A stretch of 64,000 nucleotides of DNA from a virus. The position numbers and the translations under genes are program-made. This document shows positions 6,778 to 60,352 of this stretch, in pieces. The notes under the pieces are model-generated. The model was not told the origin of the DNA and did not search any database. It was given only the letters and a program-made list of their open reading frames with translations. The stretch is taken from positions 261,474 to 325,473 of IMG/VR virus record IMGVR_UViG_3300025121_000011. One strand, written 5' to 3'. Every line of letters begins with the position of its first letter. The first letter of the stretch is position 1.

Positions 6778-7647
6778 GTGTGGTGTTCAACAACAGAAAC
6801 CTTTTTGAATATACTAAGGTGTGAAGATTTAAGGATGGATAACCTCAATAGGAGTAACTCAATGTCCAGTTCGTCTTTCGTCACGCTTATGTCTGTTGTT
6901 ATCGACCCCGCTGATCTACCTGCCCTTTTTACCGAGTTGGAGGACACTGCTGATCGTGTATGGTTGTCCCGGACCTGTGTTTGTGACCGATACACAATTA
7001 GGGGCGTGCCAGCAAGGAGGGTCGATGTTGTAATCGAGAACCGTTTGTCGACGACTAACCTTGCTGAGATTGATCCTTGCGAACGAATTGTAATGTCGGT
7101 CGTGGAAAAGGCCGGGCGCTTCGATGGTGCCATTCGTTGGCGTCTGACAGTTCGTGTCGTGCGTAGCATGGACCTTGTGATCCGCGGTGCCGATGGGTGC
7201 GTAATCAATCCGATTCCCGGTGGCCGTCTTGATGTTGAGTTGACATCAAATGGTAAGTATGGGAGTGTTCGCGTGACTCTATCTGACGGTACCGGCATTC
7301 GGTGGGATCAGAGTTTCGTTCGTCTTCGCTCTGACCTCGGTGATTACAGTCCTGCTCGGCTTGTGATGTGGCATGCCAGGAGATACTATGGTTTTCTTTT
7401 AGCCTCTGATGAGGGCTATCAGGAAGTGGTTGCCCTTGCTGATTCTTGGAAGATTCCAGGAGAGGCGTCCACACTTGCGGAAGCGAATCGGGCTGCATCT
7501 CGTGAACTGTACCGTCTTGCCCGTAATGGTGGATGGCGAAAGCTTACACTTAGGGAACGGACAAAGCTCGGTCTTTATGGTGAGGCACAGTGGATTCCTG
7601 AGAAGATCTATGCCCGCGCGCAGATGGAACATCGGATGGTAAGATAG
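6778..7647 (+). CDS. hypothetical protein (start uncertain: GTG 6778, alternative ATG 6835 or 6861)
   Basis: long ORF after module 6709-6760; ATG 6861 has the best SD (TAGGAG); terminator 7664-7696. Confidence 0.5.
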   Translation: MWCSTTETFLNILRCEDLRMDNLNRSNSMSSSSFVTLMSVVIDPADLPALFTELEDTADRVWLSRTCVCDRYTIRGVPARRVDVVIENRLSTTNLAEIDPCERIVMSVVEKAGRFDGAIRWRLTVRVVRSMDLVIRGADGCVINPIPGGRLDVELTSNGKYGSVRVTLSDGTGIRWDQSFVRLRSDLGDYSPARLVMWHARRYYGFLLASDEGYQEVVALADSWKIPGEASTLAEANRAASRELYRLARNGGWRKLTLRERTKLGLYGEAQWIPEKIYARAQMEHRMVR

Positions 7648-12310: not shown

Positions 12311-12372
12311 AATACTGGTCGGATTTGTTCTGGTTGCAGTTGTTTCTGGTCTTATAATGGAGGGAGTGTGTC

Positions 12373-12588
12373 ATGCCTTCTCAAGAAGAACTCCTCGTGA
12401 CTAACGGAACAGTCCAAGTTCAAGCTCGAATATGCGGACATCGCTACATGGTAATGAGCACGCCAGTCCAGTGGTCAACATACATCTGTCGGATTTGCGG
12501 CCTGATGACAGACCTGATGGTTGTGCCTATGGAAATGCGTATTCAACAGGCAAGACTTGAGAAAAGAAACGCGCACAAAGCTCAGTAA
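12373..12588 (+). CDS. small zinc-ribbon protein
   Basis: CGHRYMV...CRICGL; SD GGAGGGAG. Confidence 0.45.
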   Translation: MPSQEELLVTNGTVQVQARICGHRYMVMSTPVQWSTYICRICGLMTDLMVVPMEMRIQQARLEKRNAHKAQ

Positions 12589-15260: not shown

Positions 15261-15506
15261 ATGCCTTCCATCGATTATTCGGTATATATGAGGACCAGGT
15301 TACTGGACAAGGTAACCATGGCACAGCTGATAAAGGTTTGTAAAGATCGACAAGATCTGACCGTTACTCAGGAAGGTGACGATATCTTTCGTGTCTATCT
15401 TGATGTTCCAGGAAATCTGAACGCTGTTAGGATTTTGGAAGCGATTCATCGCGCAGATCGTTGGTGGGATGTAGCTTATGATCTTCGTTTCATGAAAAGC
15501 CTATAA
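15261..15506 (+). CDS. hypothetical protein
   Basis: after module 15188-15248; SD GGAGAAA. Confidence 0.45.
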   Translation: MPSIDYSVYMRTRLLDKVTMAQLIKVCKDRQDLTVTQEGDDIFRVYLDVPGNLNAVRILEAIHRADRWWDVAYDLRFMKSL

Positions 15507-17199: not shown

Positions 17200-17258
17200 G
17201 GCGGCAAAAGATTTGCAGCATCTCTAAAAAAATATCTTCTATAGTAATACAGAGGTGT
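17200..17258 (+). promoter_or_regulatory. conserved promoter-like module
   Basis: GGCGGCAAAAGATTTGCAGCATCTCTAAAAAAATATCTTCTATAGTAATACAGAGG. Confidence 0.5.
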
Positions 17259-28568: not shown

Positions 28569-28837
28569 GTTATGCATTCGAACATCTGTTTTTTCAGTGA
28601 AGCATTTGGTATATAGGAAAGGTTAATAACCTGGAATAAACAGTTACATAGAATTTATTAAGGCTGACAGCAATGTTATTTTGCATGAAGCTAATTGACT
28701 TTGTTGTTAGCCTTAAGTGGTTAACAGCAGTTACCGCTGGTGTAAAAACCCTTACGGGGATTCTACTACTTTGATCTCGTGTCACACTAATTTTTTTTAA
28801 TAAAATTTTAAAAAAGTTTGGTGGGGCTGTTTTTTGT

Positions 28838-31536: not shown

Positions 31537-31565
31537 TATAAACAATTTAATTAAAAGAGGTGCTT

Positions 31566-32453
31566 ATGAATATGAGTAAGATGATTCTTGTGATGATTGG
31601 CGTTGGTATGTTTTCCGGTTGTGTGATTCCGCCGGGAACCGTGGCGATTGAAACCTCTGTATGTGGCGATATGCCTGACGCAGAACGATATACTGTAGTT
31701 CGCAGTGGTCGGGTTTGGTCTGGACCATGTACCGAAATTTATACTCTGCCAACTCGCGAGCAGCGAGCGGTGTGGACTTTAGATCCTACGGATGGTTCTC
31801 CCAATGATGAGAGTATTACTTTTGCGGGAGTAGATGGACAGCCAGTTAATGCGGATATCGGTATTTCATATTCTATTGGAGTTGACGATTCCAGTATCAT
31901 TGCAATGATTAGGACTTATGGCCCTGATCTTGAAAGTACAATCGACTCTAAGGTTCGAGATTATGTTCGAGATTCGCTTAATGCATGCGCCAGCGAGAAT
32001 AATCGAACGGTGCAGGATCTTTATGGTGTATTTAAGACTGAGACTGTAGCTTGTGCTCAGGAGCGAACTCAAAAGGAATTTGGGCCAAACGGTTTGGTGA
32101 TTAATCGACTGACGCTCAATTCAGAAATTAGACTTCCTGCGAAGATTAAGCAAGCAATGGAAATGGCTCAGGCTGCAACTCAGGAAGCAGATCGAGTTAG
32201 TCGAGAGGTCCAAATGACTGAGGCAGAGGCTCGTAAACAGCTTGTATCTGCTCAGGCTGACGCTGATTCTCTGCGAATTAGATCTGAATCTGAGGCTGAA
32301 GCAAACCGGATTATTACTCAGTCTCTGACAAAGGAAGTGTTGGAGCTTCGCAGGTTGGAGGTAGAAGAGGCTTTGATTGGAAAATGGAATGGTTCCGTTC
32401 CCACTACTGTTTTGAGTGGTGAAAGTAATATGCTATATAATATTGGCAAGTAA
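31566..32453 (+). CDS. SPFH/band-7 (HflC/prohibitin-like) domain lipoprotein
   Basis: signal peptide with lipobox (GMFSGC); coiled Ala/Glu-rich region typical of SPFH proteins; SD AAGAGGTG. Confidence 0.6.
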   Translation: MNMSKMILVMIGVGMFSGCVIPPGTVAIETSVCGDMPDAERYTVVRSGRVWSGPCTEIYTLPTREQRAVWTLDPTDGSPNDESITFAGVDGQPVNADIGISYSIGVDDSSIIAMIRTYGPDLESTIDSKVRDYVRDSLNACASENNRTVQDLYGVFKTETVACAQERTQKEFGPNGLVINRLTLNSEIRLPAKIKQAMEMAQAATQEADRVSREVQMTEAEARKQLVSAQADADSLRIRSESEAEANRIITQSLTKEVLELRRLEVEEALIGKWNGSVPTTVLSGESNMLYNIGK

Positions 32454-36724: not shown

Positions 36725-37813
36725 ATGCGATTTATTCATTTTCCAAAAATTGGTCAATTCAAGGATGCTATTCATTCGATTCGTCAACGAGGCGCTTATG
36801 TAGGTAGAGATGTTAATGGCGATATTATTTATGATAGTTCTATTTTGATGCCAAAAATTACATTCATTGGTTCTGTTAAAATGCATGGTACTAATTCTGC
36901 TGTATCTTTTCATCGTATGGAAGGAGTGAGGCAGGCTCAATCTAGGAATAAGATTTTATCTATAGAATCAGATAACAATGGATTTTGTAGATTTACAGAG
37001 TCTATTCCCGAAGATGTTTGGGATTTTCTTTTTAATTCTCTATTATCTCCACTAATTACTGAGCCATATCTTTTTGGACGAGTAACGGTTTTTGGAGAAT
37101 GGATTGGTCCCGGTGTTCAGGGTGGTGAAATTGGTATTAAATATCTTCCGAATAAAATCTTTGTAGTGTTCGGAGTATATGTTGGGGAGCGTGATGAATT
37201 AGAAGATAAAACTCCCACCGGATACTTTGTTCCTCTTTGTGATATTCCATCTTTCAATGATGAATCTTATCATCTGAATGATAATAGAATTTATTTAATT
37301 ACTGATTTAGCTCCAACTTTCAAAATAGAAGTCGATTGTAATTATCCAGAAATTTCTAGGAATAAGTTGGTCGAATTAACTATGCAAGTTGAAGCTAAGT
37401 GCCCAGTCGCCAATTACTTTGGAATTGAAGGAACGGGAGAGGGCATCGTATGGTGCTCAATTACGGAAGGGTGGATGGGTCCAGATTTTTGGTTTAAGAC
37501 CAAGGGAGAAAAGCATTCCGCTTCAAAGATAAAAAAGATAGCCGAAGTAGATGTAACAAAGGTAGAGGGAGTAATTGCGTTTTTAGAAGAGACTCTAACT
37601 GAAGTTAGATTGAATCAAGCTTTGGAATACTTAAAAGAAAAAGAGATGCCTATCGATCGAAGTAGCACAGGCGAGTTTGTTCGGTGGATGATCAATGACG
37701 TTACTACTGAAGAGGCTATAATGATGGAAGCCTCAGGACTTACAGTAAAAGAAGTTGGTCCCAAATTAGGCACAGCCGCCAGGCAGTGGTTTTTTAATCA
37801 ACTTAATAAGTAG
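36725..37813 (+). CDS. ATP-dependent RNA ligase, Rnl2-like
   Basis: motif I KMHGTN (T4 Rnl2 KIHGTN), motif IV GEGIVW, motif V FWFKTKG. Confidence 0.7.
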   Translation: MRFIHFPKIGQFKDAIHSIRQRGAYVGRDVNGDIIYDSSILMPKITFIGSVKMHGTNSAVSFHRMEGVRQAQSRNKILSIESDNNGFCRFTESIPEDVWDFLFNSLLSPLITEPYLFGRVTVFGEWIGPGVQGGEIGIKYLPNKIFVVFGVYVGERDELEDKTPTGYFVPLCDIPSFNDESYHLNDNRIYLITDLAPTFKIEVDCNYPEISRNKLVELTMQVEAKCPVANYFGIEGTGEGIVWCSITEGWMGPDFWFKTKGEKHSASKIKKIAEVDVTKVEGVIAFLEETLTEVRLNQALEYLKEKEMPIDRSSTGEFVRWMINDVTTEEAIMMEASGLTVKEVGPKLGTAARQWFFNQLNK

Positions 37814-38676: not shown

Positions 38677-40038
38677 ATGATTATACGATTTACATCGACC
38701 AATCCAAACGCACTTGATATTCTTAAAAAGAATCCAGAAAGTTTTTCAGGTATTCAATTGAGAAGTCATAAAAATGGTGTGGCTATAGGTAGGATTATTT
38801 CCGCAAAGATTCCTATTGAATATCATATGATCTTTCAAGATACTAAATATAGTTACTCTCAGGATTCCTCTAATCAGATTGATTTTCAAAGTTATTGCAA
38901 TCCTCGTGCAGCACTTGGTTTAATTGGAGAGTTACTCCGGCACGTATTAGTATCAGATCAAGATTGGCGGGATACAGATATTCCATGGCTTAACTCTACA
39001 ATTGGAGAAGTTGATACAAGAGACTTTAACCACACTATTATAGTAGATAATTTATATGCAGATGGTTTTAACTTAGATGGAGGGCTGGTTTTAGAAAAGT
39101 ATTTTAAGGAGATTTCTCTAAAAAGAAATGGTCAGAATCAGTTTGAGCTAAAGATAGATGTCTGTCGAGATACAATACATTATACCATTAATTTATTGGC
39201 TTTTGTATGTATGTATTTGGCGGCAACTAATAAACAGCCTTGGTATCTTAACCGAGATATAGCATCAAAATACATTAGAGTTTTAGAAAATATTGGTGAC
39301 GTGCCATATTTTATTTTATATCTTTTTGCCCGTTCCTGTCTTCCATCGGAAGAATTATTTAATGAATTCGCTCCTCGATTGGAGAATATTTTTTACAGCT
39401 ATGATGATCGAGCAAATGATCTAACTATGGTATATGGAAATACTCAATCAATGAGATTGCGAAGTATTTCTGATTTGCTTTTAACTAATGATAAAATTTT
39501 TTCTAACATTATAGAAATTGGTTGTGGCGATGGAGATTATCCTCGCCGATTAGCAAAGAAGTTGAATAATGGATTAAGTTGGTGGTCATATGATATTGAA
39601 GATCATAGTTATCTTAATCGTAAAATTCCAGAAATGATGGGAAAATTAGCAACATTTAAATTTACTCAAGAGTGGGATCAAATTCCTTTATTGGATAACC
39701 CTATAGTATTGTTAGTAGAAGTAATTGAGCATATGTCGGTTGAAGAAGCGATAGAATTAATCTGTCGAATTTTAGATAAGCACTCTCCGACACAATTAAT
39801 TATTACTACTCCAAATAGGACATTTAATAATTATTATCGGTTTGATCCCGAAGATGATGGATTTAGACACAGCGATCACAATTTTGAAATGACTCAGGAG
39901 CAATTTAAAGAATATATTCTTAGTATCATTAAATTGCTCCCATATGATGCATCCTTTTTCGGAATTGGTGATCGAATTGATGCAGATTATACTACTCAAG
40001 GAGTGGTATTAACTCGTAAAGATCCTGGGTCAAGCTAA
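38677..40038 (+). CDS. hen1: Hen1-like RNA 3'-terminal 2'-O-methyltransferase (bacterial Hen1 architecture)
   Basis: 453 aa; C-terminal SAM motif I IEIGCGDG, metal-binding EVIEH (ExxEH) and H 46-49 aa downstream as in Hen1 methyltransferases; N-terminal ~270 aa non-MTase domain; extended -10 promoter upstream. Confidence 0.6.
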   Translation: MIIRFTSTNPNALDILKKNPESFSGIQLRSHKNGVAIGRIISAKIPIEYHMIFQDTKYSYSQDSSNQIDFQSYCNPRAALGLIGELLRHVLVSDQDWRDTDIPWLNSTIGEVDTRDFNHTIIVDNLYADGFNLDGGLVLEKYFKEISLKRNGQNQFELKIDVCRDTIHYTINLLAFVCMYLAATNKQPWYLNRDIASKYIRVLENIGDVPYFILYLFARSCLPSEELFNEFAPRLENIFYSYDDRANDLTMVYGNTQSMRLRSISDLLLTNDKIFSNIIEIGCGDGDYPRRLAKKLNNGLSWWSYDIEDHSYLNRKIPEMMGKLATFKFTQEWDQIPLLDNPIVLLVEVIEHMSVEEAIELICRILDKHSPTQLIITTPNRTFNNYYRFDPEDDGFRHSDHNFEMTQEQFKEYILSIIKLLPYDASFFGIGDRIDADYTTQGVVLTRKDPGSS

Positions 40039-53558: not shown

Positions 53559-53984
53559 TTAAGAATCTTCTGAAACTATTTTCCTAGAATTGAATGTTCT
53601 TATTCTGTGGCAGTTAGCGCAAACTAATTCGCATTTTGAAATTTCGTTTGACAGTCTTGCTAAAGATACTCCTTTGTTTCGAGCAATACTAATATTAAAT
53701 TCCTTATTTTTAAGGTGGTCAAAATCCATCACATAAGTTGGGTATGTGATACCACAATCAGTACATGGAGCGTCTTTTGCCTTTGCAATTACATCTAGTA
53801 TAGATTGTTCTCTAATACTTTTCCTCTTTCGATAAGCATCTTTGTTAGATTGATAATGAGCTTTACTCATAATCTTATTGCACTCTCGACATCGATTATG
53901 ACGCTTGTTTAAAGATTTGTTTTCAAATGGGAAATCAGTAAGTAATAGGGTTTCGTGACATACATTACATTCTTTGGTAAGCAT
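53559..53984 (-). CDS. HNH homing endonuclease
   Basis: CNVCHE ... CRECN zinc finger plus DFDHLKNK ... LVCANCHR. Confidence 0.6.
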   Translation of the reverse strand: MLTKECNVCHETLLLTDFPFENKSLNKRHNRCRECNKIMSKAHYQSNKDAYRKRKSIREQSILDVIAKAKDAPCTDCGITYPTYVMDFDHLKNKEFNISIARNKGVSLARLSNEISKCELVCANCHRIRTFNSRKIVSEDS

Positions 53985-54037
53985 AAATCCTCCGTATAAT
54001 TTATGCTTATAAATTAGTAGATTCTTTAGTAAATTTT

Positions 54038-54114
54038 AGGGCCATAACTCAATTGGTTAGAGTGTCGCTCTCATAAAGCGAATGTTCTGAGTTCGAGTCT
54101 CAGTGGCCCTACCA
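54038..54114 (+). tRNA. tRNA with CAT anticodon (initiator/elongator Met or Ile2 lysidine-type), CCA encoded
   Basis: acceptor AGGGCCA/TGGCCCT, D-arm ACTCAATTGGTTAGAGT, anticodon loop CTCATAA, T-arm CTGAG-TTCGAGT-CTCAG, ACCA. Confidence 0.7.
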
Positions 54115-54261
54115 TTTTAATCTTAAATAATAAAGCCTTGTTGAGTCGCTAAAATCTGGGTTGGCTTCCCAGCTTCCCAGCTCCTCGCTCTGGAGTAGGT
54201 ACGAGTCAAAGAGAATGCCTGCCCGGGTTTCCCCCGGCTGGGAGCCGGATTAAGTTCTCAT

Positions 54262-54350
54262 AGTAGTGTGATGGTCCTATTCACTACATTCCTGGAACAA
54301 ATAGTTTAATTGGGAGAACATTGACGAAAGGTGTGGGTTCGAGTCCTGCT
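54262..54350 (+). ncRNA. tRNA-like element lacking a canonical anticodon arm (Y-RNA-like / tRNA-mimic candidate), preceded by hairpin GTAGTG...CACTAC
   Basis: D-arm-like GTTTAATTGGGAGAAC and T-arm GTGGG-TTCGAGT-CCTGC only 13 nt apart; similar in architecture to the 54605 element. Confidence 0.35.
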
Positions 54351-54389
54351 TTGATTTTTTATATTAATCTTAAAATCGCGAGGAGTAAT

Positions 54390-54602
54390 ATGACTGTATT
54401 TCTTGTTGTAAAAGATTACAATCGTGAGTGTCCAAAGGACATAATTATGTCAGCCTTTTATAATAAAGAGGATGCCAAGACTTTTATGAAAAATACTTTT
54501 GAAGAGATATGTAATTGTCCTGATCGGCAGACTGATGAAGATGAATTGGGATGTTTCAGATGTTGCTTGTGGATTGGTATTGATTCGATAGAGGTAAAAT
54601 AA
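54390..54602 (+). CDS. hypothetical small Cys-containing protein
   Basis: ATG 54390 with SD GAGGAG; track start 54321 lies inside the tRNA-like element. Confidence 0.35.
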   Translation: MTVFLVVKDYNRECPKDIIMSAFYNKEDAKTFMKNTFEEICNCPDRQTDEDELGCFRCCLWIGIDSIEVK

Positions 54603-54604
54603 CA

Positions 54605-54690
54605 TAGTGATCATCCTATTCATTACATATTAATGGGCCAAATAGTTCAAGTGGGAGAATATCGTCGCGAGAAGATGTAGGTTCAAATCC
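54605..54690 (+). ncRNA. tRNA-like element lacking a canonical anticodon arm (second copy)
   Basis: D-arm-like GTTCAAGTGGGAGAAT and T-arm GTAGG-TTCAAAT-CCTAC 15 nt apart; similar upstream hairpin. Confidence 0.35.
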
Positions 54691-54814
54691 TACTTTGAGC
54701 CCCCAATTTCATATTCATAGTTTGGGTACATTCAGCATAAATTTTTTTTACCATATAAAAACAAATCGTACCCAGTGATTTAATCCTGGCTTTTGCCATT
54801 TAATGAGGTGTTTA

Positions 54815-55030
54815 ATGTGGAAGAATATTTTGGTTATGCTAATGCTTATGGGTTGCCCTACTGTTGAATCAGTTTCTGATGATGCAGCAGTAGTGGATGA
54901 TGCAGTAGTAGTTGAGACTCCGGTAGTTCAGTCTGATGCAGCAGTTGATGCGACTGTTACTACTCCGGTAGTTGATGAAAATGATGTTACTGCTGATGTT
55001 GTAGAAAATGTTCCAGTTGCAACTGAGTAA
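54815..55030 (+). CDS. small secreted/lipoprotein-like acidic repeat protein
   Basis: signal peptide ending GCP; Val/Asp/Ala-rich repeats. Confidence 0.35.
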   Translation: MWKNILVMLMLMGCPTVESVSDDAAVVDDAVVVETPVVQSDAAVDATVTTPVVDENDVTADVVENVPVATE

Positions 55031-55196
55031 ATAGGGAATAGGCATCACGGTCGCCTTTAAGTACGCCGTCATAGGTAAGTTTAGTTTTGGGTTGATAACT
55101 ATATTTAAGCAAACCTTAAACAGTTCATAATTTTAAGAAGAGATTTCTTATTATTCACAAATGAATGAGCCAATGATTGTGTCAGTTGGCATCGGT

Positions 55197-55279
55197 GCGG
55201 AGTATACAAGTGGTCAAAGTAGAGGCGCTCATAACGCTTTGCTATAGCTTCATGGGTTCGAATCCCATTTCCGCTCCCA
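55197..55279 (+). tRNA. tRNA-like with CAT anticodon (second CAT tRNA; acceptor stem imperfect)
   Basis: anticodon arm AGGCG-CTCATAA-CGCTT, T-arm ATGGG-TTCGAAT-CCCAT, 3' TTTCCGC t CCA; acceptor pairs 6 of 7. Confidence 0.5.
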
Positions 55280-55289
55280 ATGCTTGCAC

Positions 55290-55673
55290 GAATATAGGTT
55301 CCGGTCGAAACACCTACAAAGTTTCGTAAAATCCTGTGAGTTTAGCCATCTGTAACCAACCAGGTCGGGTCAGGATTAAGCAACCGCAAGCGGGTCATGC
55401 TAATATATTCTCATAACCTTTAGAAGTAGGATCGGAAAGAAATCCGGTAGGCAAGGTCGACTTACCCTGGTAAACTTCTTAAAGTGCTGCACTGGAATAA
55501 AAAGCATACAGTTGGGTGATTGTCCTAGTCCCAACATCTTTAAGCCTTAACAGTTGGAGTTCTGTTTTTCATGAGTAAGCAGTGTCGGAGATTTAATTTA
55601 TTAAATCAATGACTAGGCTGAAAGTCGCTTTGCTGAATTTGATGATGCTTGTGTCAAAAGTATCTGATCTGAA
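55290..55673 (+). ncRNA. structured RNA candidate with group-I-intron-like conserved elements
   Basis: no ORF; AAATCCGGTAGGCAAGGTC (55439-55457) resembles the group I Q element AAUCCGCAGCCAAGUCC; TCAATGACTAGGCTGAAAGTC resembles the R/P7 region. Confidence 0.3.
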
Positions 55674-55775
55674 AGCTTCAGACTTGATTGAATGCGAAAG
55701 TCATGGTTCTTAATTGACACTCCCCATGACAGTTAGTAAATCCAAGAGACGGTTAGGTTCGAATCCTAGGAGGCT
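55674..55775 (+). ncRNA. expanded tRNA-like element (acceptor AAGCTTC/GAGGCTT, T-arm TTAGG-TTCGAAT-CCTAG, internal 7-bp hairpin)
   Basis: 7-bp acceptor complementarity and canonical T-loop but about 102 nt long with no D-arm or anticodon arm. Confidence 0.3.
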
Positions 55776-55782
55776 TATTATT

Positions 55783-56130
55783 ATGAAAAAGCAAAAGGGT
55801 TGGATTATTATTGGTTTAAAACGAAACGGAGATTATGTTGGTTACATTGAAAATTCTTTTTCAATGGGACGCAGTTTAGAACGGGTTTTAGTTTTTCGTC
55901 CAAATCCTCTTTCTGAAAAAGAACATCCAAATAAGAGTGCTGTAGATAATGCTCGTTCACATTTAGCAAAACTTCAGGCTCTTGATGACCACACTGAGTG
56001 GTGGTTGTATCGAGTTGGTTCTTGTACTTGTCCCGTCAAAATTGATTGGGGTTCTTTATACGAAGAATATCGAGGAAGTACAAGAGTAAGTAATTTTAAC
56101 TGGAGAAATCTTAAATTCAGTCGGAAATAG
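55783..56130 (+). CDS. hypothetical protein
   Basis: SD TAGGAGG then ATG 55783. Confidence 0.4.
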   Translation: MKKQKGWIIIGLKRNGDYVGYIENSFSMGRSLERVLVFRPNPLSEKEHPNKSAVDNARSHLAKLQALDDHTEWWLYRVGSCTCPVKIDWGSLYEEYRGSTRVSNFNWRNLKFSRK

Positions 56131-56162
56131 AAGTATATTATTTGTTACCTGAGGGGATTTAA

Positions 56163-56393
56163 ATGTCTGTGCCGAATGTAATTCAAAAGGCTTTTGATCT
56201 TGATGAGAGGATTATTGCCGTGGCTTGGGATAAGATTGAGCCAGTGCTGATTTTATCTAAACCATGGCTCGAAAGTGCCGAAGAGGAGATGGTTCAAGAA
56301 GAGTTTTTAAGGCAAAGTGAAACATATCTATTATTTGATGAACTATGGCGATTTTTTGAAGATTGTGAATCAACTAGATATGATAGAGAATAG
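56163..56393 (+). CDS. hypothetical small acidic protein
   Basis: SD GAGGGGA. Confidence 0.35.
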   Translation: MSVPNVIQKAFDLDERIIAVAWDKIEPVLILSKPWLESAEEEMVQEEFLRQSETYLLFDELWRFFEDCESTRYDRE

Positions 56394-56405
56394 TTTTTGT
56401 TTTGA

Positions 56406-56560
56406 TGCCATGTAGCAAAGTAGGTAAATGCAAGTGTGGACTAAGCCAATATGGATGGTCTTGTAATCGAGAGAACAAGTTCCGGGATCATGGTGAAACC
56501 CATTGTTATTATTTAGCCCGACGAATAATGACGCGCTGGTTCGAGTCCAGCCATGGCAAC
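56406..56560 (+). ncRNA. tRNA-like element with a ~100-nt expanded central region (perfect 7-bp acceptor TGCCATG/CATGGCA)
   Basis: D-arm GCAAAGTAGGTAAATGC, T-arm GCTGG-TTCGAGT-CCAGC, acceptor 7/7, no canonical anticodon arm. Confidence 0.4.
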
Positions 56561-56568
56561 TATTTTTT

Positions 56569-56681
56569 GCGGAATAGTGTAGTAGGGAGCACGCGTATAA
56601 TGTATCTTGATAAAGATGTATACAGCAATCAAACAAATCCATTGGGTGGACGAAGTATAGGTTCGAGTCCTATTTCTGCAA
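56569..56681 (+). ncRNA. tRNA-like element with expanded central region (acceptor TGCGGAA/TTCTGCA)
   Basis: D-arm GTGTAGTAGGGAGCAC, T-arm ATAGG-TTCGAGT-CCTAT, acceptor 7/7 with one G-U; 113 nt. Confidence 0.4.
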
Positions 56682-56723
56682 CTATTTGAGAAGACATAAC
56701 ACTTAACAAAAGGAGATAATTAA

Positions 56724-56975
56724 ATGAAGAATTTTATGATTATTTTGGCAGCACTGTTTGCTTTTGGATGTGCAGAATCTAAGGTGATTAATGGTGTGGA
56801 GTATGAGCCATGTGGATTGCTGGATGACTCAGACTGTAAGGATCCTTCTATTCGTTATGAAGCTAACATTGGAAATGTCATCTGGGGAGTTATTTTGGTT
56901 GAGACTGTGGTTGTTCCGATTTGGCTTTTTGGGTTTGAGCTTTATGAGCCAACTTATGCAAAGCCGATCAAGTAA
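56724..56975 (+). CDS. small lipoprotein/secreted protein
   Basis: signal peptide with AFGCAES lipobox; SD AAGGAGA. Confidence 0.4.
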   Translation: MKNFMIILAALFAFGCAESKVINGVEYEPCGLLDDSDCKDPSIRYEANIGNVIWGVILVETVVVPIWLFGFELYEPTYAKPIK

Positions 56976-57051
56976 GTAAAAATAATATAAAAATCTTTTG
57001 ATTATTTTTAAAACGTAGCGTATGCTAAATGTAGCAATCAATTAAATTTAT

Positions 57052-57130
57052 GCCTCTGTAGCTCAGGATTGAGAGTGCCTGGCGTTTCGCTGGGAGGGTC
57101 GTTAGGTTAAAGTCTTAACCGGAGGCACCA
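57052..57130 (+). tRNA. tRNA-like (possible TTT anticodon; non-canonical T-loop TTAAAGT), CCA encoded
   Basis: acceptor GCCTCTG/CGGAGGC plus ACCA, D-arm GCTCAGGATTGAGAGT, anticodon region CCTGG-CGTTTCG-CTGGG. Confidence 0.45.
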
Positions 57131-57230
57131 TACAGGTTTGAGGGGAACGCGAAGAGATAGTCCTTAACGTAAGTATTCTATCGTGAGATAGAGTAGCCTA
57201 CTACAATCATTTTATATAGATGTCATTTAT

Positions 57231-57319
57231 ATTTGAATAGCTTAGTGTCAAAGCGTTTGCGGCCTACTTCTTCGGATTCAAAAGCCGTAAAAGTCATAGG
57301 TTAGATTCCTATTTCAAAT
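57231..57319 (+). ncRNA. tRNA-like element with extended anticodon-region helix (acceptor ATTTGAA/TTCAAAT)
   Basis: 7/7 acceptor pairing, D-arm GCTTAGTGTCAAAGC, T-arm ATAGG-TTAGATT-CCTAT, 7-bp central helix with 19-nt loop. Confidence 0.35.
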
Positions 57320-57566
57320 ACTATTTAAACTATAGGTTCACGGAACACACTCTTTCACGGTGGTTACTCACTTTAAATTGAAATATTTTTAGGTCTATAG
57401 TTTAAATTTTTAAGGGATGCAATCAGCAATTAAATTTTTCTTTATGTAAAAACAAATCGCACCCTGATTTTTTTAGGATACAAACAGCAAATAAACATTC
57501 AACTTGTTTTTGAAAAACGTTTAATTGTATCCTGTTTATTATTAGTAGTAGCATTAAGGTGATAAT

Positions 57567-57857
57567 ATGATTCAAGCTATGACTGTATTGACAGCAGAAC
57601 CGCATCCTAATGCGGATAGATTAAAAGTCTATACTCTACGTGCAAGTTATGATGAGCCAATTCTTCAGGTGTGTGCTAATCTAACCAATGTTTATAGTGT
57701 TGGTAATGTTGTAGCTGTTTGTTTAATTGGTCATGCATATGATGGTATGGTTATCAAATCCCGGAAGGTGCGTGGGGTTCTGTCTCAAGGAATGATGATT
57801 GGTACTACAAAGGCTGTTTCAGGTTCTGATGTTACTGATTCATTTGTGATTGTGTAA
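57567..57857 (+). CDS. tRNA-binding domain protein (Myf/CsaA/Trbp111-like OB fold)
   Basis: VLTAEPHPNADRLKVYTL ... VCANLTNV ... GNVVAVCLIG matches the tRNA-binding domain pattern (V.PHPNADKL.VC.VD ... VCGA.N ... G..V.VA). Confidence 0.55.
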   Translation: MIQAMTVLTAEPHPNADRLKVYTLRASYDEPILQVCANLTNVYSVGNVVAVCLIGHAYDGMVIKSRKVRGVLSQGMMIGTTKAVSGSDVTDSFVIV

Positions 57858-58039
57858 AATATATAATTTAAAGTAATCTTCTTATGAATATTGTTAATTT
57901 GTTTTTGTTTGGGTGCAACCAGCAAACTAAATAATTCAGGCTACTATTCTAAATTGCACCCAGCTTTTAATTTTTACTTATAAATATATAATCAGAAGTA
58001 ACTATCCTATGAAATTAAAAACATACCAGGAGGTATGCC

Positions 58040-58648
58040 ATGTTAAGGATGGTTGGGCCCAAAATTCCTATGGATATTTATGTGGCGGCTTCTGGTGGAC
58101 CAGACAGCATGGCTGTCTTGGATTTTCTTATTCGTGGTGGTCGTAAAATTACAGTTTTACATTTTGATCATGGGACTAAACATGGAGAAGATGCTAGAGA
58201 GTTTATTAGGGAGTATTGTCAGTCGAGAGATATTAAACTGATTATTGGAAATGAGATTAGAGAGCGAGACTCTAACGAGTCTATGGAAGAATATTGGCGT
58301 GATATGCGATATCAGTTTCTTGATCAGTATTCAGATAAGCCAATTGTCATGGCACATAATCTTGATGATCAGGTGATGAGTTGGGTATTTACTTCTTTGA
58401 ATGGATTGCCAAAACTTATTCCTTATAACAGAAGGAACGTTATCCGTCCTTTCATTGTAACTTCTAAGCAGAATATGATTGATTGGTGTGAGCGAAATGG
58501 GGTTCCGTATTTAACGGACCCAAGTAATGATGATACAAGATATATGAGAAATTTTATTAGAAAAGAAATTCTTCCTTCAGCTTTAGTTGTTAATCCAGGA
58601 TTATATAAAGTAATCTTAAAGAAGATTTTAAGAAATTTTGAAGGATAA
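58040..58648 (+). CDS. tilS: TilS-like PP-loop ATPase (tRNA(Ile)-lysidine synthetase catalytic domain)
   Basis: PP-loop SGGPDS followed by VLHFDHGTKHGEDAREFIREYC, matching the TilS pattern SGGxDS ... HxxHGxR ... ED..FV..C; 202 aa, so N-terminal domain only. Confidence 0.6.
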   Translation: MLRMVGPKIPMDIYVAASGGPDSMAVLDFLIRGGRKITVLHFDHGTKHGEDAREFIREYCQSRDIKLIIGNEIRERDSNESMEEYWRDMRYQFLDQYSDKPIVMAHNLDDQVMSWVFTSLNGLPKLIPYNRRNVIRPFIVTSKQNMIDWCERNGVPYLTDPSNDDTRYMRNFIRKEILPSALVVNPGLYKVILKKILRNFEG

Positions 58649-58708
58649 ATAATTATATTTTGGATATATGCAGCAATTAAATCACAAACTATCCAGTAGA
58701 GGTGAAAT

Positions 58709-60160
58709 ATGAGTTTTGTAGACGCAATGACTTCTAATGATATGCTTACAGAAAATGGTGCCGTTACTCACAGCACCTCAGGAAAAGCAATTATGGATAT
58801 GTTTTTCCAGATCGGTGGTATGCGTGGCCATAGTGGTGAAGATGTAATTTCTTTATTTACTAAGGCTCTTGGAGAAGATCCTTTAACGGCAATGAAGATC
58901 TTGTTTTATAACCGCGATATTCGTGGTGGACAAGGAGAGCGGCAAACTTTTCGTTATATTATGTCTTATCTTGCTCAGTATCATCCGGAGCTTATTCGAA
59001 AGAATATGCATTTGATTCCGGAATACGGTCGGTGGGATGATATGTTTGTGTTTGTTGGAACCGGATTGGAGAATGATGCTTTTGCTTTAATTCGCACTGC
59101 ATTGCATGAGCAAAACGGTTTAGCCGCAAAGTGGTGTCCTCGTTTGAAGTCTTCTAAAAAGATTTTAGCAGCAAAACTGTGTGCATATCTTGGAATGACT
59201 CCGAAGCAATATCGTCAAACGCTTGCGAGACTTACCAAGGTTGTTGAAACTCCAATGTGCGCTAATCAGTGGGAAGATATTAACTTTAGTCAGGTCCCTT
59301 CGGTAGCAATGAAAAATTATCGCAAGTCATTTGCGAGACATACTCCCAACGAGTGGGAACAGTATCTTGCTGCTTTAGAAAAGGGCGACCCGGCTGTTAA
59401 GATTAATGCAAGCGCTATTTTCCCACATGACATTATCAAACAGTGGGTTGCTGGTTCAGTCGGTTATTATAGGGTTACATCTCCAGATCGTCAAGAGATT
59501 CGCGCAGCCGAAGCACAGTGGAATGCTTTGCCTGATTATATGGGTGAGAATTCTGGAAAGGTATTGGTTATGGCCGATGTTTCGGGTTCTATGTATTCTG
59601 GTTTAAATCCCAGTTTAGCTCCAATTCAGGCTTCCGTTTCTTTGGCGCTGTATTGTGCCGAACGATGTAAGGGGCCTTTTAAGAATTTTTACATGAGTTT
59701 TTCTGGAAATCCAGAATTTGTAAAGGTTCAAGGAAGTAATATTTACGAAAAAGTTATTAATATCAACAATAAAAATGTTGGATATAACACTGATATTAAT
59801 CGTGCTTTTGCGGTATTGTTGAGTCGCGCAAAGCAGCACTCTGTTTCACAGGCCGACATGCAAGAAACTTTATTGATTCTTTCAGATATGCAATTTGATT
59901 GCAGCGAAATTAGTGGAAAGACTAATTTTGAAACGATTCGAGATCAGTACCGTGCATCTGGTTATCAACTTCCTCAGATTGTTTTTTGGAATTTGAATTC
60001 TAAGGGTGGTGTTCCGGTAAAAATAACTGATGATGGAGTAGCTTTAGTGTCCGGGTTTAGCCCAAGTATTCTTACTGCAATCCTGGGTGGAGAAGTATCG
60101 CCCATGGCAGTTTTGAATAGGGCAATTCATAGTGGACGATATGATGCGGTAACTCTTTGA
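58709..60160 (+). CDS. vWA-domain protein, possibly Ro60/TROVE-like (DUF2828-type)
   Basis: C-terminal vWA MIDAS motif VLVMADVSGSM; N-terminus MSFVDAMTSNDMLTENGAVTHSTSGKA ... resembles the phage/bacterial TROVE-related DUF2828 family from memory; terminator 60260-60301. Confidence 0.5.
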   Translation: MSFVDAMTSNDMLTENGAVTHSTSGKAIMDMFFQIGGMRGHSGEDVISLFTKALGEDPLTAMKILFYNRDIRGGQGERQTFRYIMSYLAQYHPELIRKNMHLIPEYGRWDDMFVFVGTGLENDAFALIRTALHEQNGLAAKWCPRLKSSKKILAAKLCAYLGMTPKQYRQTLARLTKVVETPMCANQWEDINFSQVPSVAMKNYRKSFARHTPNEWEQYLAALEKGDPAVKINASAIFPHDIIKQWVAGSVGYYRVTSPDRQEIRAAEAQWNALPDYMGENSGKVLVMADVSGSMYSGLNPSLAPIQASVSLALYCAERCKGPFKNFYMSFSGNPEFVKVQGSNIYEKVININNKNVGYNTDINRAFAVLLSRAKQHSVSQADMQETLLILSDMQFDCSEISGKTNFETIRDQYRASGYQLPQIVFWNLNSKGGVPVKITDDGVALVSGFSPSILTAILGGEVSPMAVLNRAIHSGRYDAVTL

Positions 60161-60259
60161 TAAGGGATTGATGTTTATTGAATAAGTTTTAAGGATACAT
60201 TAACAGCAAAACAAAAGACTACATGATGCAATTAATTAGGTCTTCGGATCGGAATTAAT

Positions 60260-60301
60260 ATGAGTGGCGGCGGGAAGGCATGACGCCACTCATTAAAAAA
60301 A
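60260..60301 (+). terminator. rho-independent terminator
   Basis: ATGAGTGGCG ... CGCCACTCAT (10-bp stem) plus TTAAAAAAA. Confidence 0.55.
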
Positions 60302-60352
60302 TAAATAGATGTCTATGTATCCTGATTTTAATATTTTTATATAGAGGAATTA

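Follow-up and report, generated by a model that had tools for sequence, protein, structure and literature searches.

Particles of Ro60 protein and Y RNA are known in bacteria and a few phages. YrlA RNAs are defined as being encoded at most ~4 kb from Ro60 on the same strand with the motif GNCGAAN0-1G near the 5′ end, and are circularly permuted tRNA mimics in which a T arm, a closed acceptor stem-loop and a D arm lie between ends that pair in a helix (PMC4201824). Phage Ro60 proteins with Y-like RNAs have also been described (PMC4201824, PMC12135203), such as the Ro60 of Thermus phage phiLo with Yrl1 and Yrl2 (PMC12135203), and a study of a P100-like phage of Listeria suggested that three unannotated RNAs of very high abundance, at most 2 kb upstream of its Rsr-like gene, might be Y RNAs (PMC12282133). 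Here, we analysed a 64-kb stretch of a huge phage of ~333 kb (the window; 64,000 nucleotides, positions 261,474 to 325,473 of IMG/VR record IMGVR_UViG_3300025121_000011), in which the gene of a Ro60-like DUF2828 protein lies inside an island of tRNA and small-RNA genes at 54.0–60.4 kb. A first-pass annotation of this DNA had flagged six tRNA-like elements upstream of the gene as candidate Y-RNA-like mimics. With moderate confidence, we find the island as a whole best explained as non-decoding tRNA-like genes together with RNAs carrying a short helix and an ACAGCAA box (box-helix RNAs), the latter being likely Y-type partners of the Ro-like protein. The claim on the six specific elements is weaker than the claim on the locus.

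The island resembles the YrlA/Ro60 systems (RF02553, PMC4201824, PMC12135203) in combining a Ro60-fold protein with small structured RNAs within a few kb on the same strand, with RNA-repair genes nearby. Some box-helix RNAs are likewise mimics made of a T arm, a closed acceptor and a D arm with paired ends, and have a short motif after the 5′ helix strand. In contrast to those systems, the protein belongs to DUF2828 and not to Pfam TROVE, the motif is ACAGCAA and not GNCGAAN0-1G or CGAA, and the phage box-helix RNAs reach 30–38 bits with the Rfam YrlA model as opposed to a gathering score of 69. The module here also closes hairpins consisting of an anticodon stem-loop only as well as RNAs of 160–290 nt, and is found internally in tRNA bodies of ordinary topology; the six flagged elements are themselves unpermuted, and five of them lack the module.

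Predicted structure of the DUF2828 protein

The gene at 58709–60160 (+ strand) encodes an RNA-binding protein of 483 amino acids, predicted to comprise a DUF2828 helical-repeat ring and a vWA domain with a DxSGS MIDAS motif (for metal ion-dependent adhesion site), the latter being invariant in the alignment of the DUF2828 family. Pfam searches at E ≤ 0.01 returned only DUF2828 (E = 1e-41) and DUF7788 (E = 3e-45), and no match to TROVE (PF05731) at the same threshold. An AlphaFold model was built with 40 database homologues (predicted local distance difference test score 89, predicted template modelling score 0.88) and compared to the PDB using Foldseek. The top 12 matches were all Ro60/TROVE proteins (frog Ro60, Deinococcus Rsr, phiLo Ro60), with E-values of 1e-8 to 1e-6, TM-scores of 0.49–0.64 and ~500–557 aligned columns. 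Ro60 alone was matched over the full length, and the lower-ranking matches were isolated vWA domains. A profile of the family found the phiLo TROVE protein (9l5y) as its best sequence match in the PDB (E = 0.0026), over the MIDAS region.

The first-pass annotation had suggested a vWA protein with a possible TROVE-like N-terminus: the modelled fold agrees with this, whereas the profile search it had named as its own test found no TROVE domain at the Pfam level. We give the predicted fold precedence over the absent Pfam match, and a Ro60-like protein is supported by the model. A sequence-level likeness of DUF2828 to Ro had already been noted, in the "Ro-like" naming of the mycobacteriophage proteins and in an HHpred match (PMC12282133); new here is the evidence from the predicted fold, which places DUF2828 with Ro60. 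Records of cultured phages with a homologue number 702 and span Felix O1-like, P100-like and KVP40-like phages as well as staphylococcal phages and mycobacterial ones of cluster L, among others. The mycobacteriophage homologues are annotated as "Ro-like RNA binding protein" and RefSeq uses "RNA-binding protein". In almost every lineage inspected, the gene is situated beside tRNA genes.

A terminal helix with an ACAGCAA box

The box-helix module was noticed through weak Rfam matches to the Dictyostelium Class I RNA (RF01414) at 57415–57534 of the window and a block conserved in relatives. The matches, at this site and at 6867–6925 of the related locus L164, score 20–31 bits (gathering score 41.5). 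In both kinds of RNA the ends are joined by a short helix next to an ...ACAGCAA motif, the interior varies, and there is a 3′ CUG. The Dictyostelium RNA is of eukaryotic source, however, and the matches stay below the gathering score; the resemblance may be convergent.

The consensus of the module is 5′-(U/A)A-GGAUnn-N2-6-CAGCAA ... nnAUCC-UG(U)-3′, with the 5′ and 3′ ends pairing in a helix of 6–7 bp and the ACAGCAA box located 1–5 nt after the 5′ strand. In the loci examined, 245 distinct 5′ boxes were found on the + strand versus 2 on the – strand. For 211 of the 245 (86%), an exactly complementary NNATCCTG follows 25–300 nt downstream, compared to 37 of 3675 (1%) for non-complementary variants, and seven pair types occur. 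When 26 short cassettes of eight lineages were aligned, pairing in the terminal helix was 95% and compensatory changes were seen in all seven pairs; none of 500 shuffles of this alignment reached its covariation score or its percentage of pairing, and six reached its count of pairs changed on both sides.

The interiors closed by the helix fall into classes of ~50–70 nt (one hairpin), ~112–135 nt (permuted tRNA-like), ~157–170 nt and ~228–290 nt. In the shortest class, for which the search slightly favoured the signature of an anticodon stem-loop, 51 of 55 members have a stem of at least 4 bp and a 7-nt loop; in 45 of these, position 33 is U and position 37 a purine. The commonest triplets of these hairpins are UUU (11), UGA (6), GCA (6), GGU (5) and UGU (4). 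Members of the ~112–135-nt class run in the order anticodon-like hairpin, variable region, T arm, acceptor closed by a loop of 4–16 nt, and D arm. The YrlA model (RF02553) matches such RNAs at full length beside the gene, albeit below its gathering score of 69 bits: the freshwater relatives reach 30–35 bits (L085 3376–3494, 35.1 bits, E = 5e-4 in a 56-kb search and 2e-6 locally; L068, 34.7 bits; L148, 30.2 bits), with the match running through the T arm, acceptor loop and D arm, and mycobacteriophage Kingsolomon reaches 37.9 bits (E = 7e-5).

Box-helix RNAs beside the DUF2828 gene

A cassette is found upstream of the gene in 82 of 84 distinct metagenomic loci (those with at least 700 nt upstream of the gene), with a median of 84 nt between the end of the cassette and the start of the gene, and a gap of at most 100 nt in 76. 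Since the metagenomic loci had all been retrieved through DUF2828, cultured phages of unrelated lineages were examined as well. Nine cultured lineages have two to four cassettes within ~5.7 kb on the strand of the gene, most of them less than 1 kb away, while the opposite strands gave only three weak, AT-rich spurious matches. Three cassettes directly follow the gene in Kingsolomon, the middle one being the YrlA-like RNA and the flanking ones anticodon-type hairpins. Listeria phage P100 has three cassettes 60–340 nt upstream, and Vibrio phage KVP40 has a mini at the gene start and two large cassettes, located 3.2 and 5.4 kb upstream of it. Three cassettes each were found in E. coli wV8, Bacillus Tsamsa, Enterococcus EFGrNG and Staphylococcus S-CoN_Ph6, two in Campylobacter F365 and four, one of which is a mini in the leader, in Sinorhizobium phiN3. 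Several of the cultured-phage cassettes are permuted tRNA-like. In all, the module accompanies the DUF2828 gene in the phage of the window and ten further phage lineages. The three P100 cassettes fit the description given for the abundant RNAs of the P100-like phage (PMC12282133).

A covariance model (R1) trained solely on the cassettes of other phages gave seven matches in the window at E ≤ 0.02, all on the + strand and six of them flanking the Ro-like gene within 4 kb. Upstream, the cassette at 54722–54776 consists of GGGUAC, CAGCAUA, an interior and GUACCC (28.5 bits, E = 2e-4). The one at 57412–57467 (26.5 bits, E = 7e-4) is conserved in L166, L170 and L172. The best match, 57474–57535 (53.6 bits, E = 1e-10), encloses a hairpin resembling an anticodon stem-loop (UUCAA-CUUGUUU-UUGAA), and 57909–57964 (28.1 bits, E = 3e-4) has an interior similar to that at L164 7805. 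A mini box-helix occupies the 5′ leader of the Ro-like gene (58660–58697; 21.6 bits, E = 0.011), an arrangement also seen in KVP40 and Sinorhizobium phiN3; its presence in three lineages suggests a possible autoregulatory site. Directly after the gene lies a 135-nt box-helix RNA (60191–60325; 21.1 bits, E = 0.014), whose conserved counterparts in L164, L170 and L172 show covariation in an internal hairpin; by position it is the best Y-RNA candidate in the window. The seventh match, far from the gene at 28657–28718 (20.5 bits, E = 0.02), has a different helix, UAAGGCU/AGCCUUA. Within the window, it is thus likely the box-helix RNAs, and not the flagged elements, that are the best candidates for Y RNAs, and the box-helix is most likely a shared handle, putatively the binding site of the Ro-like protein.

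Six tRNA-like elements without an anticodon arm

The six flagged elements were analysed with ARAGORN, the Rfam tRNA model RF00005 (gathering score 29 bits) and our own cloverleaf scanner. All six are present, lie on the + strand between called genes and, as the first-pass annotation had claimed, lack a usable anticodon arm according to ARAGORN (which calls none of the six), the Rfam alignments and the folds. Four of them pass the gathering score: 57231–57320 (49.1 bits, with a 26-nt "anticodon loop" in the alignment), 56568–56681 (40.8 bits, with 53 nt in place of the expected 11), 54295–54357 (37.3 bits, 63 nt long) and 54636–54701 (32.1 bits, 66 nt long). The remaining two, 55673–55776 and 56406–56558, have no Rfam match at E ≤ 5 and were found by the scanner: 7/7 pairs form in the acceptor stem and 5/5 in the T stem, the T loop has TTCGA, and a D arm is present. 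In the Rfam alignments the acceptor, D and T arms match and the anticodon arm is replaced by 4–7 nt or 26–53 nt; none of the six has a stem of 5 bp closing a 7-nt loop with U at position 33 and a purine at 37. The acceptor, T and D helices as well as G18G19 and the elbow bases of the T loop are intact in every element, as judged by scanner and folds. The general plan is a 7-bp acceptor, a D arm with G18G19 and a TΨC-type T loop. The perfect 7-bp acceptor previously reported for all six holds for four (scanner 7/7 or folds), whereas the two shortest elements, here called minis, have 8 bp with one bulged A.

As a control for chance, a stricter scanner (requiring also U8, a D loop with GG and a length of 55–200 nt) was run on the ~2 Mb of phage DNA examined. 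It gave 1567 matches, of which 1515 were ARAGORN tRNAs; 50 of the other 52 were on the tRNA strand, and reversed-sequence controls gave 4 matches. Because the scanner matches almost only tRNAs or the tRNA strand, with just those 4 in the reversed control, the six elements are far beyond chance. They are tRNA-derived genes that keep the acceptor/T/D "elbow" half and are unable to decode, the anticodon arm being lost in the two minis and overwritten in the other four.

The minis are paralogues. In miniA (54293–54360) the anticodon arm is reduced to ~13 nt forming a short hairpin with a C-GAAA-G loop, and in miniB (54634–54703) the central region is 16 nt with a C-GCGA-G loop, as seen in the paralogue alignment and consensus fold. 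The coordinates first given to them (54262–54350 and 54605–54690) were off by ~30 nt, with 5′ ends in a separate conserved hairpin upstream. This upstream segment, GUGAUnnUCCUAUUCAyUACAU (54262–54292 and 54603–54633), forms a small hairpin directly before each mini; pairing of its CUAUU with the AAUAG that begins the D arm of the mini is also conceivable, and no convincing partner was found for a pairing of the segment with a 5′ box. The two genes are 82% identical over 121-nt stretches (MAFFT; 75% over 92 bp by blastn). Nine helix pairs differ between them and all remain paired, two through double compensatory changes in the acceptor stem (AA/UU to GC/GC). Since every helix pair is kept despite this divergence, comparison of the two sequences argues for selection on an anticodon-less tRNA shape. 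A pattern search for minis in IMG/VR found nothing.

The flagged elements might instead be decaying tRNA pseudogenes, the functionless remnant of a larger canonical array. Freshwater relatives have up to 38 canonical tRNAs in the 10 kb upstream of DUF2828, where the island of the window has two; the flagged elements have no orthologues in relatives; and three of them end in ACUAUUU where canonical neighbours have ACCAUUU, so that CUA stands in the place of the encoded CCA. However, the damage is confined to the anticodon arm, with the other helices and elbow bases intact in six of six, and the minis, ~20% diverged, have kept every pair. Each clade relative moreover retains non-decoding tRNA-like genes of its own, not orthologous to those of the window, with 6-bp stems capped by tetraloops, loops of 5 or 6 nt, or Lys-UUU-like loops with A33, C33 or G33, and 56568–56681 belongs to a conserved family (see below). 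We consider decay an unlikely account of the elements.

It is more improbable still that the six elements are themselves YrlA-type Y RNAs bound by the Ro-like protein, as had been proposed. Being tRNA-like, on the same strand and 1.4–4.4 kb upstream of 58709–60160, they fit the positional rule for YrlA (PMC4201824), and GNCGAAN0-1G is present in miniA (54323) and in 56568–56681 (56649). The motif is located just 5′ of the T arm in both, not near the 5′ end, and its enrichment is weak (2 of 29 occurrences). The shorter GACGAA precedes the T arm in three elements (3 of 10 copies on the + strand of the window, in ~1% of its length), but was chosen post hoc; CGAA or GACGAA was for these reasons not relied on as a Ro-binding site. 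The topology speaks against this identification: all six have the order acceptor-D-T-acceptor with an open acceptor stem, as opposed to the permuted order of YrlA, and there is no terminal Ro-binding helix. YrlA and Y_RNA gave no match at E ≤ 5 in 53900–57600 or at E ≤ 1 in 48040–68648, and the Rfam YrlA threshold of 69 bits was not reached. The mark of YrlA-like RNAs in relatives and other lineages is, instead, the helix with the ACAGCAA box. Of the proposed Ro60-like particle with Y-RNA-like mimics, what stands is that YrlA-like mimics adjoin the gene of this family in relatives and in Kingsolomon; the six flagged elements are not those mimics.

Elements with insertions

Only one flagged element, 56568–56681, carries the box-helix module, placed internally between the D arm and an anticodon-like hairpin of a tRNA body. 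In the family alignment the module (56603–56629) reads UAUCUU-GAUA-AAGAUG, UAUA, CAGCAAU; model R1 gave only 13.4 bits (E = 1.2) on the box region 56612–56647. The element is a member of a family of 113–118 nt, with the same architecture in six freshwater-phage genes on quite different tRNA bodies. In the alignment of the seven sequences (A6), 22 of 22 pairs are always paired, 11 with compensatory changes, and the module is nearly invariant. RNAs of this type are topological circular permutations of the YrlA-like class: one has an open acceptor and a closed box-helix, the other a closed acceptor and an open box-helix.

The other insertion-bearing elements differ in their central regions. In 55673–55776 (7/7 acceptor pairs, 4-bp D arm, TTCGAAT in the T arm), ~50 nt replace the 17-nt anticodon arm and variable loop expected; they comprise a hairpin CAUGG...CCAUG followed by a degenerate ACAGUUAG. 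The element at 56406–56559, identified by scanner and fold, has a central insertion of ~100 nt and the 3′ trailer ACUAUUU. That at 57231–57320 has the same trailer, and its anticodon arm folds as an 8-bp stem with a 20-nt loop. These two and the minis have no box.

Insertions in or beside the anticodon arm would also be expected of intron-bearing or split pre-tRNAs, matured by a phage cut-and-ligate pathway (RNA ligase, Pnkp, Hen1) with the box-helix as a splicing or processing helix. The permuted-versus-inserted symmetry of the helix, which closes permuted genes and is internal in genes of ordinary topology, and two tRNA-Ile genes of L170 are the reasons for retaining this explanation. The latter (UAU and GAU; 12344–12477 and 15278–15411) have intact 5-bp anticodon stems, and their anticodon loops, otherwise intact, hold a conserved insert of ~61 nt, a length too small for a group I intron. 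Ligase genes at 36725 and 41105 and a Hen1 gene at 38677, which confirm the RNA ligases and Hen1-like enzyme first reported for the window, would suit such a pathway. A comparable case is offered by Cyanidioschyzon merolae and archaea with their permuted or intron-bearing tRNA genes, where, too, the same helix closes a permuted gene or sits as an insertion.

Unlike in those organisms, no splicing endonuclease was found here: tRNA-intron endonuclease and RtcB domains are absent from the 40 open reading frames (ORFs) of the window that were scanned, a set covering part of the small ORFs. Many members of the box-helix RNAs could never become functional tRNAs, as they hold just an anticodon-type hairpin or loops of 5–6 nt; the minis have deletions, not insertions; and removal of the insert yields no 5-bp stem with a 7-nt loop in 56568–56681 or 57231–57320. 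Rfam models of known ribozymes, introns, Y_RNA and YrlA gave no match in the island at E ≤ 5. The group I introns raised as an alternative in the first-pass annotation find no Intron_gpI match at that threshold, and the inserts of 26–100 nt are too short (~200 nt or more would be needed). Maturation by splicing thus appears improbable.

A similarly low probability is assigned to the elements being processing punctuation or cis-regulators, with RNase P and RNase Z cuts separating or controlling the interleaved small ORFs. Every small ORF in 54.3–57.0 kb is flanked by such elements, and a GGAGG Shine-Dalgarno sequence lies inside the 3′ acceptor strand of 55673–55776, 8 nt before an ATG at 55784. 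Ordinary tRNAs would do equally well for this purpose, though, the ORFs and the elements alike lack conservation in relatives, and the selective loss of the anticodon arm would be left unexplained.

A further described RNA of this general kind is stable RNA species 1 of phage T4 (rnaC, L182 10909–11047), a tRNA-like RNA comparable to the insertion-bearing elements of the window. It is non-decoding and belongs to a tRNA cluster; its large insert is framed by an acceptor-like stem and a T arm of canonical form (CCGGG-UUCGAAU-CCCGG). It differs in having no sequence similarity to the elements of the window, and the T4 tRNA cluster contains no ACAGCAA box.

Other genes and tRNAs of the window

The same phage DNA is found in more than 20 other contigs, and no close DNA relative was found among GenBank phages except for ~70 nt of the canonical tRNA-CAU at 54038. 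Between the tRNA-like elements and the Ro-like gene lie, on the + strand, genes for a tRNA-binding domain protein (PF01588, by domain search; 57567–57857) and a 202-amino-acid TilS-like PP-loop protein (58040–58648; Pfam ATP_bind_3, E = 7.5e-34), homologues of which are named tRNA(Ile)-lysidine synthase. The order tRNA_bind, TilS-like, DUF2828 is kept in clade relatives, whose DUF2828 proteins are 60–72% identical. Further upstream, the phage encodes two ligases (an RNA ligase and one of Pnkp type), Hen1, phosphoesterases and a Band-7 protein. A gene for a Band-7/SPFH protein is a repeated neighbour of the Ro-like gene in distant phages (window 31560–32453, Kingsolomon gp48, L166 17279–18064), and in Listeria phage P100 the Ro-like gene is followed, 1.3 kb downstream, by one for an RtcB-type "tRNA splicing ligase". 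Scans for sigma-70 promoters and terminators showed no excess over shuffled sequence. A repeat, (a/c)tctaaaaaaatat(t/c)c...tagtaa(t/c)a after ggcggcaaaag.tttgcagc, is found at 17213, 18382, 18484, 19356 and ~21100 of the window, where it lies upstream of small ORFs; it probably serves as a phage promoter or has a regulatory role. Two noncoding, G+C-richer stretches between tRNA-like genes, 55280–55672 and 54115–54262, have obvious local helices; neither has an Rfam match or a homologue in the locus collection examined.

ARAGORN calls only four tRNAs in the window: Leu-UAA (16751), Lys-UUU (19685) and two with anticodon CAU on the + strand of the island. Both CAU tRNAs, at 54038–54114 (canonical; Rfam 69.2 bits) and at 55196–55279 (41.1 bits), had been listed as clean tRNAs, and here ARAGORN and Rfam agree; a third so listed, TTT-like and at 57052, is rejected by both. 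The CAU tRNA at 55196–55279 has a long (type II) variable arm and may be a tRNA-Ile2 on which the TilS-like enzyme of the phage acts. The enzyme consists of the PP-loop domain without the usual C-terminal tRNA-binding domains, and the two could form a self-contained AUA-decoding pair. In freshwater relatives, tRNA-Ile(UAU) genes of 92–95 nt also have a long variable arm (L093 7779–7873; ~92-nt "tRNA-Ile(tat)" calls in many loci).

The tRNA-like gene at 57052–57129 (+ strand) encodes its CCA end and is non-canonical, with the anticodon loop CGUUUCG (G33, C37) and the T loop UUAAAGU. It has blastn matches in four relatives (L164 6452–6530, L170 4607–4691, L166 6045–6129, L172 187–271), and the acceptor stem covaries in their alignment (A4). 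The family has the T loop UUAAAGU or UUACAGU and anticodon loops of 6–8 nt centred on UU (CGUUUCG, UGAUUAU and others); other Lys-UUU-like genes of relatives have A33 or C33. Such genes may be anticodon-nuclease-resistant or non-ribosomal tRNA variants. A further aberrant element, 19866–19947 (Rfam 19870–19940, 36 bits), has a 5-bp stem capped by an ACAA tetraloop. Anticodon arms of 5–6 bp with an ACAA or GACG tetraloop are shared by this element, L164 18994–19069 and wV8 (L176 6352–6422), with the common D loop AGCAAGGUUA; the copy of the window and the 71-nt "tRNA-OTHER" of wV8 have a CAGCAA box in the D-arm position, directly after the 5′ acceptor strand. Freshwater phages also encode a tRNA-like family of 97–108 nt (L019 15250–15347, L060 10001–10098, L034 1424–1521, L002 9079–9175, L088 2909–3016 and similar), in which an anticodon-type hairpin or a UUCG-capped 7-bp stem sits on an extra helix beside a long variable arm; some are mislabelled tRNA-Arg(tcg) by ARAGORN.

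Discussion

The box-helix RNAs are conserved, covarying structures tightly linked to the gene of a protein with a predicted Ro60-like fold. A search of the open-access literature on the ACAGCAA box module, DUF2828, permuted phage tRNAs and tRNA introns of huge phages found no prior description, and the module is not in Rfam. New here are the ACAGCAA-box terminal helix across eleven lineages, the classes consisting of an anticodon stem-loop only and of tRNAs with the handle inserted, and the leader copies. Because these are absent from the literature searched and from Rfam, we regard the finding as a variant within the known theme of phage Ro60 and Y-like mimics.

In the arrangement we favour, the island would be transcribed together with its tRNAs, and host RNase P and 3′ processing would free tRNA-shaped pieces. 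The Ro-like ring would bind the box-helix, which would present anticodon-stem-loop hairpins, permuted YrlA-like mimics and larger RNAs where it closes them, and tRNA bodies of ordinary topology where it is internal. During infection, the attached or co-expressed tRNA-shaped parts could then tether or decoy proteins that handle tRNA, or be their clients; candidates for such proteins are the repair ligases, Pnkp/Hen1, the Trbp111-like and TilS-like proteins, and host anticodon nucleases. Any role of the five box-less elements is less certain: they could be partners of the protein, independent decoys or processing signals, or decaying genes.

Several points weigh against this account. The five box-less elements have no detectable homologues in clade relatives or the other loci examined, a blastn search with all six elements and the two noncoding stretches giving only a 19-nt match in the T arm, and their only tie to the Ro-like protein is proximity. 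The region 53900–57600 is 100% identical in the three independent assemblies that carry the phage, which leaves no population variation with which to test constraint on the elements. The metagenomic loci share their retrieval through DUF2828, and the cassettes co-occur with tRNA arrays as well. The ACAGCAA box departs from the motifs of known bacterial and phage Y RNAs, and the T4 tRNA cluster, free of box cassettes, is the sole negative control. T4 is not known to have a DUF2828 gene.

More tentatively, DUF2828 Ro-like proteins might form a pan-phage ribonucleoprotein whose RNAs share the helix and ACAGCAA handle and display tRNA in pieces, with the elements of the window as "top-half" pieces. 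Such mimicry might decoy or redirect host nucleases that target tRNA, or recruit tRNA repair or modification, with the leader copy serving feedback control; we hold this broader scheme to be possible but doubtful, and its link to anticodon-nuclease defence and tRNA repair is speculative. At a more practical level, annotators gain a means of recognising box-helix RNAs and the "pseudo-tRNAs" around them, and the very abundant unannotated RNAs of the P100-like Listeria phage have a possible explanation. The cassettes and the protein also constitute a concrete RNA-protein pair to test in easily grown model phages. For the family as a whole, our results indicate that a widespread phage "RNA-binding protein", DUF2828, has a Ro60 fold, and that its gene is almost always accompanied by small RNAs of a simple, searchable signature that include several kinds of tRNA mimic.

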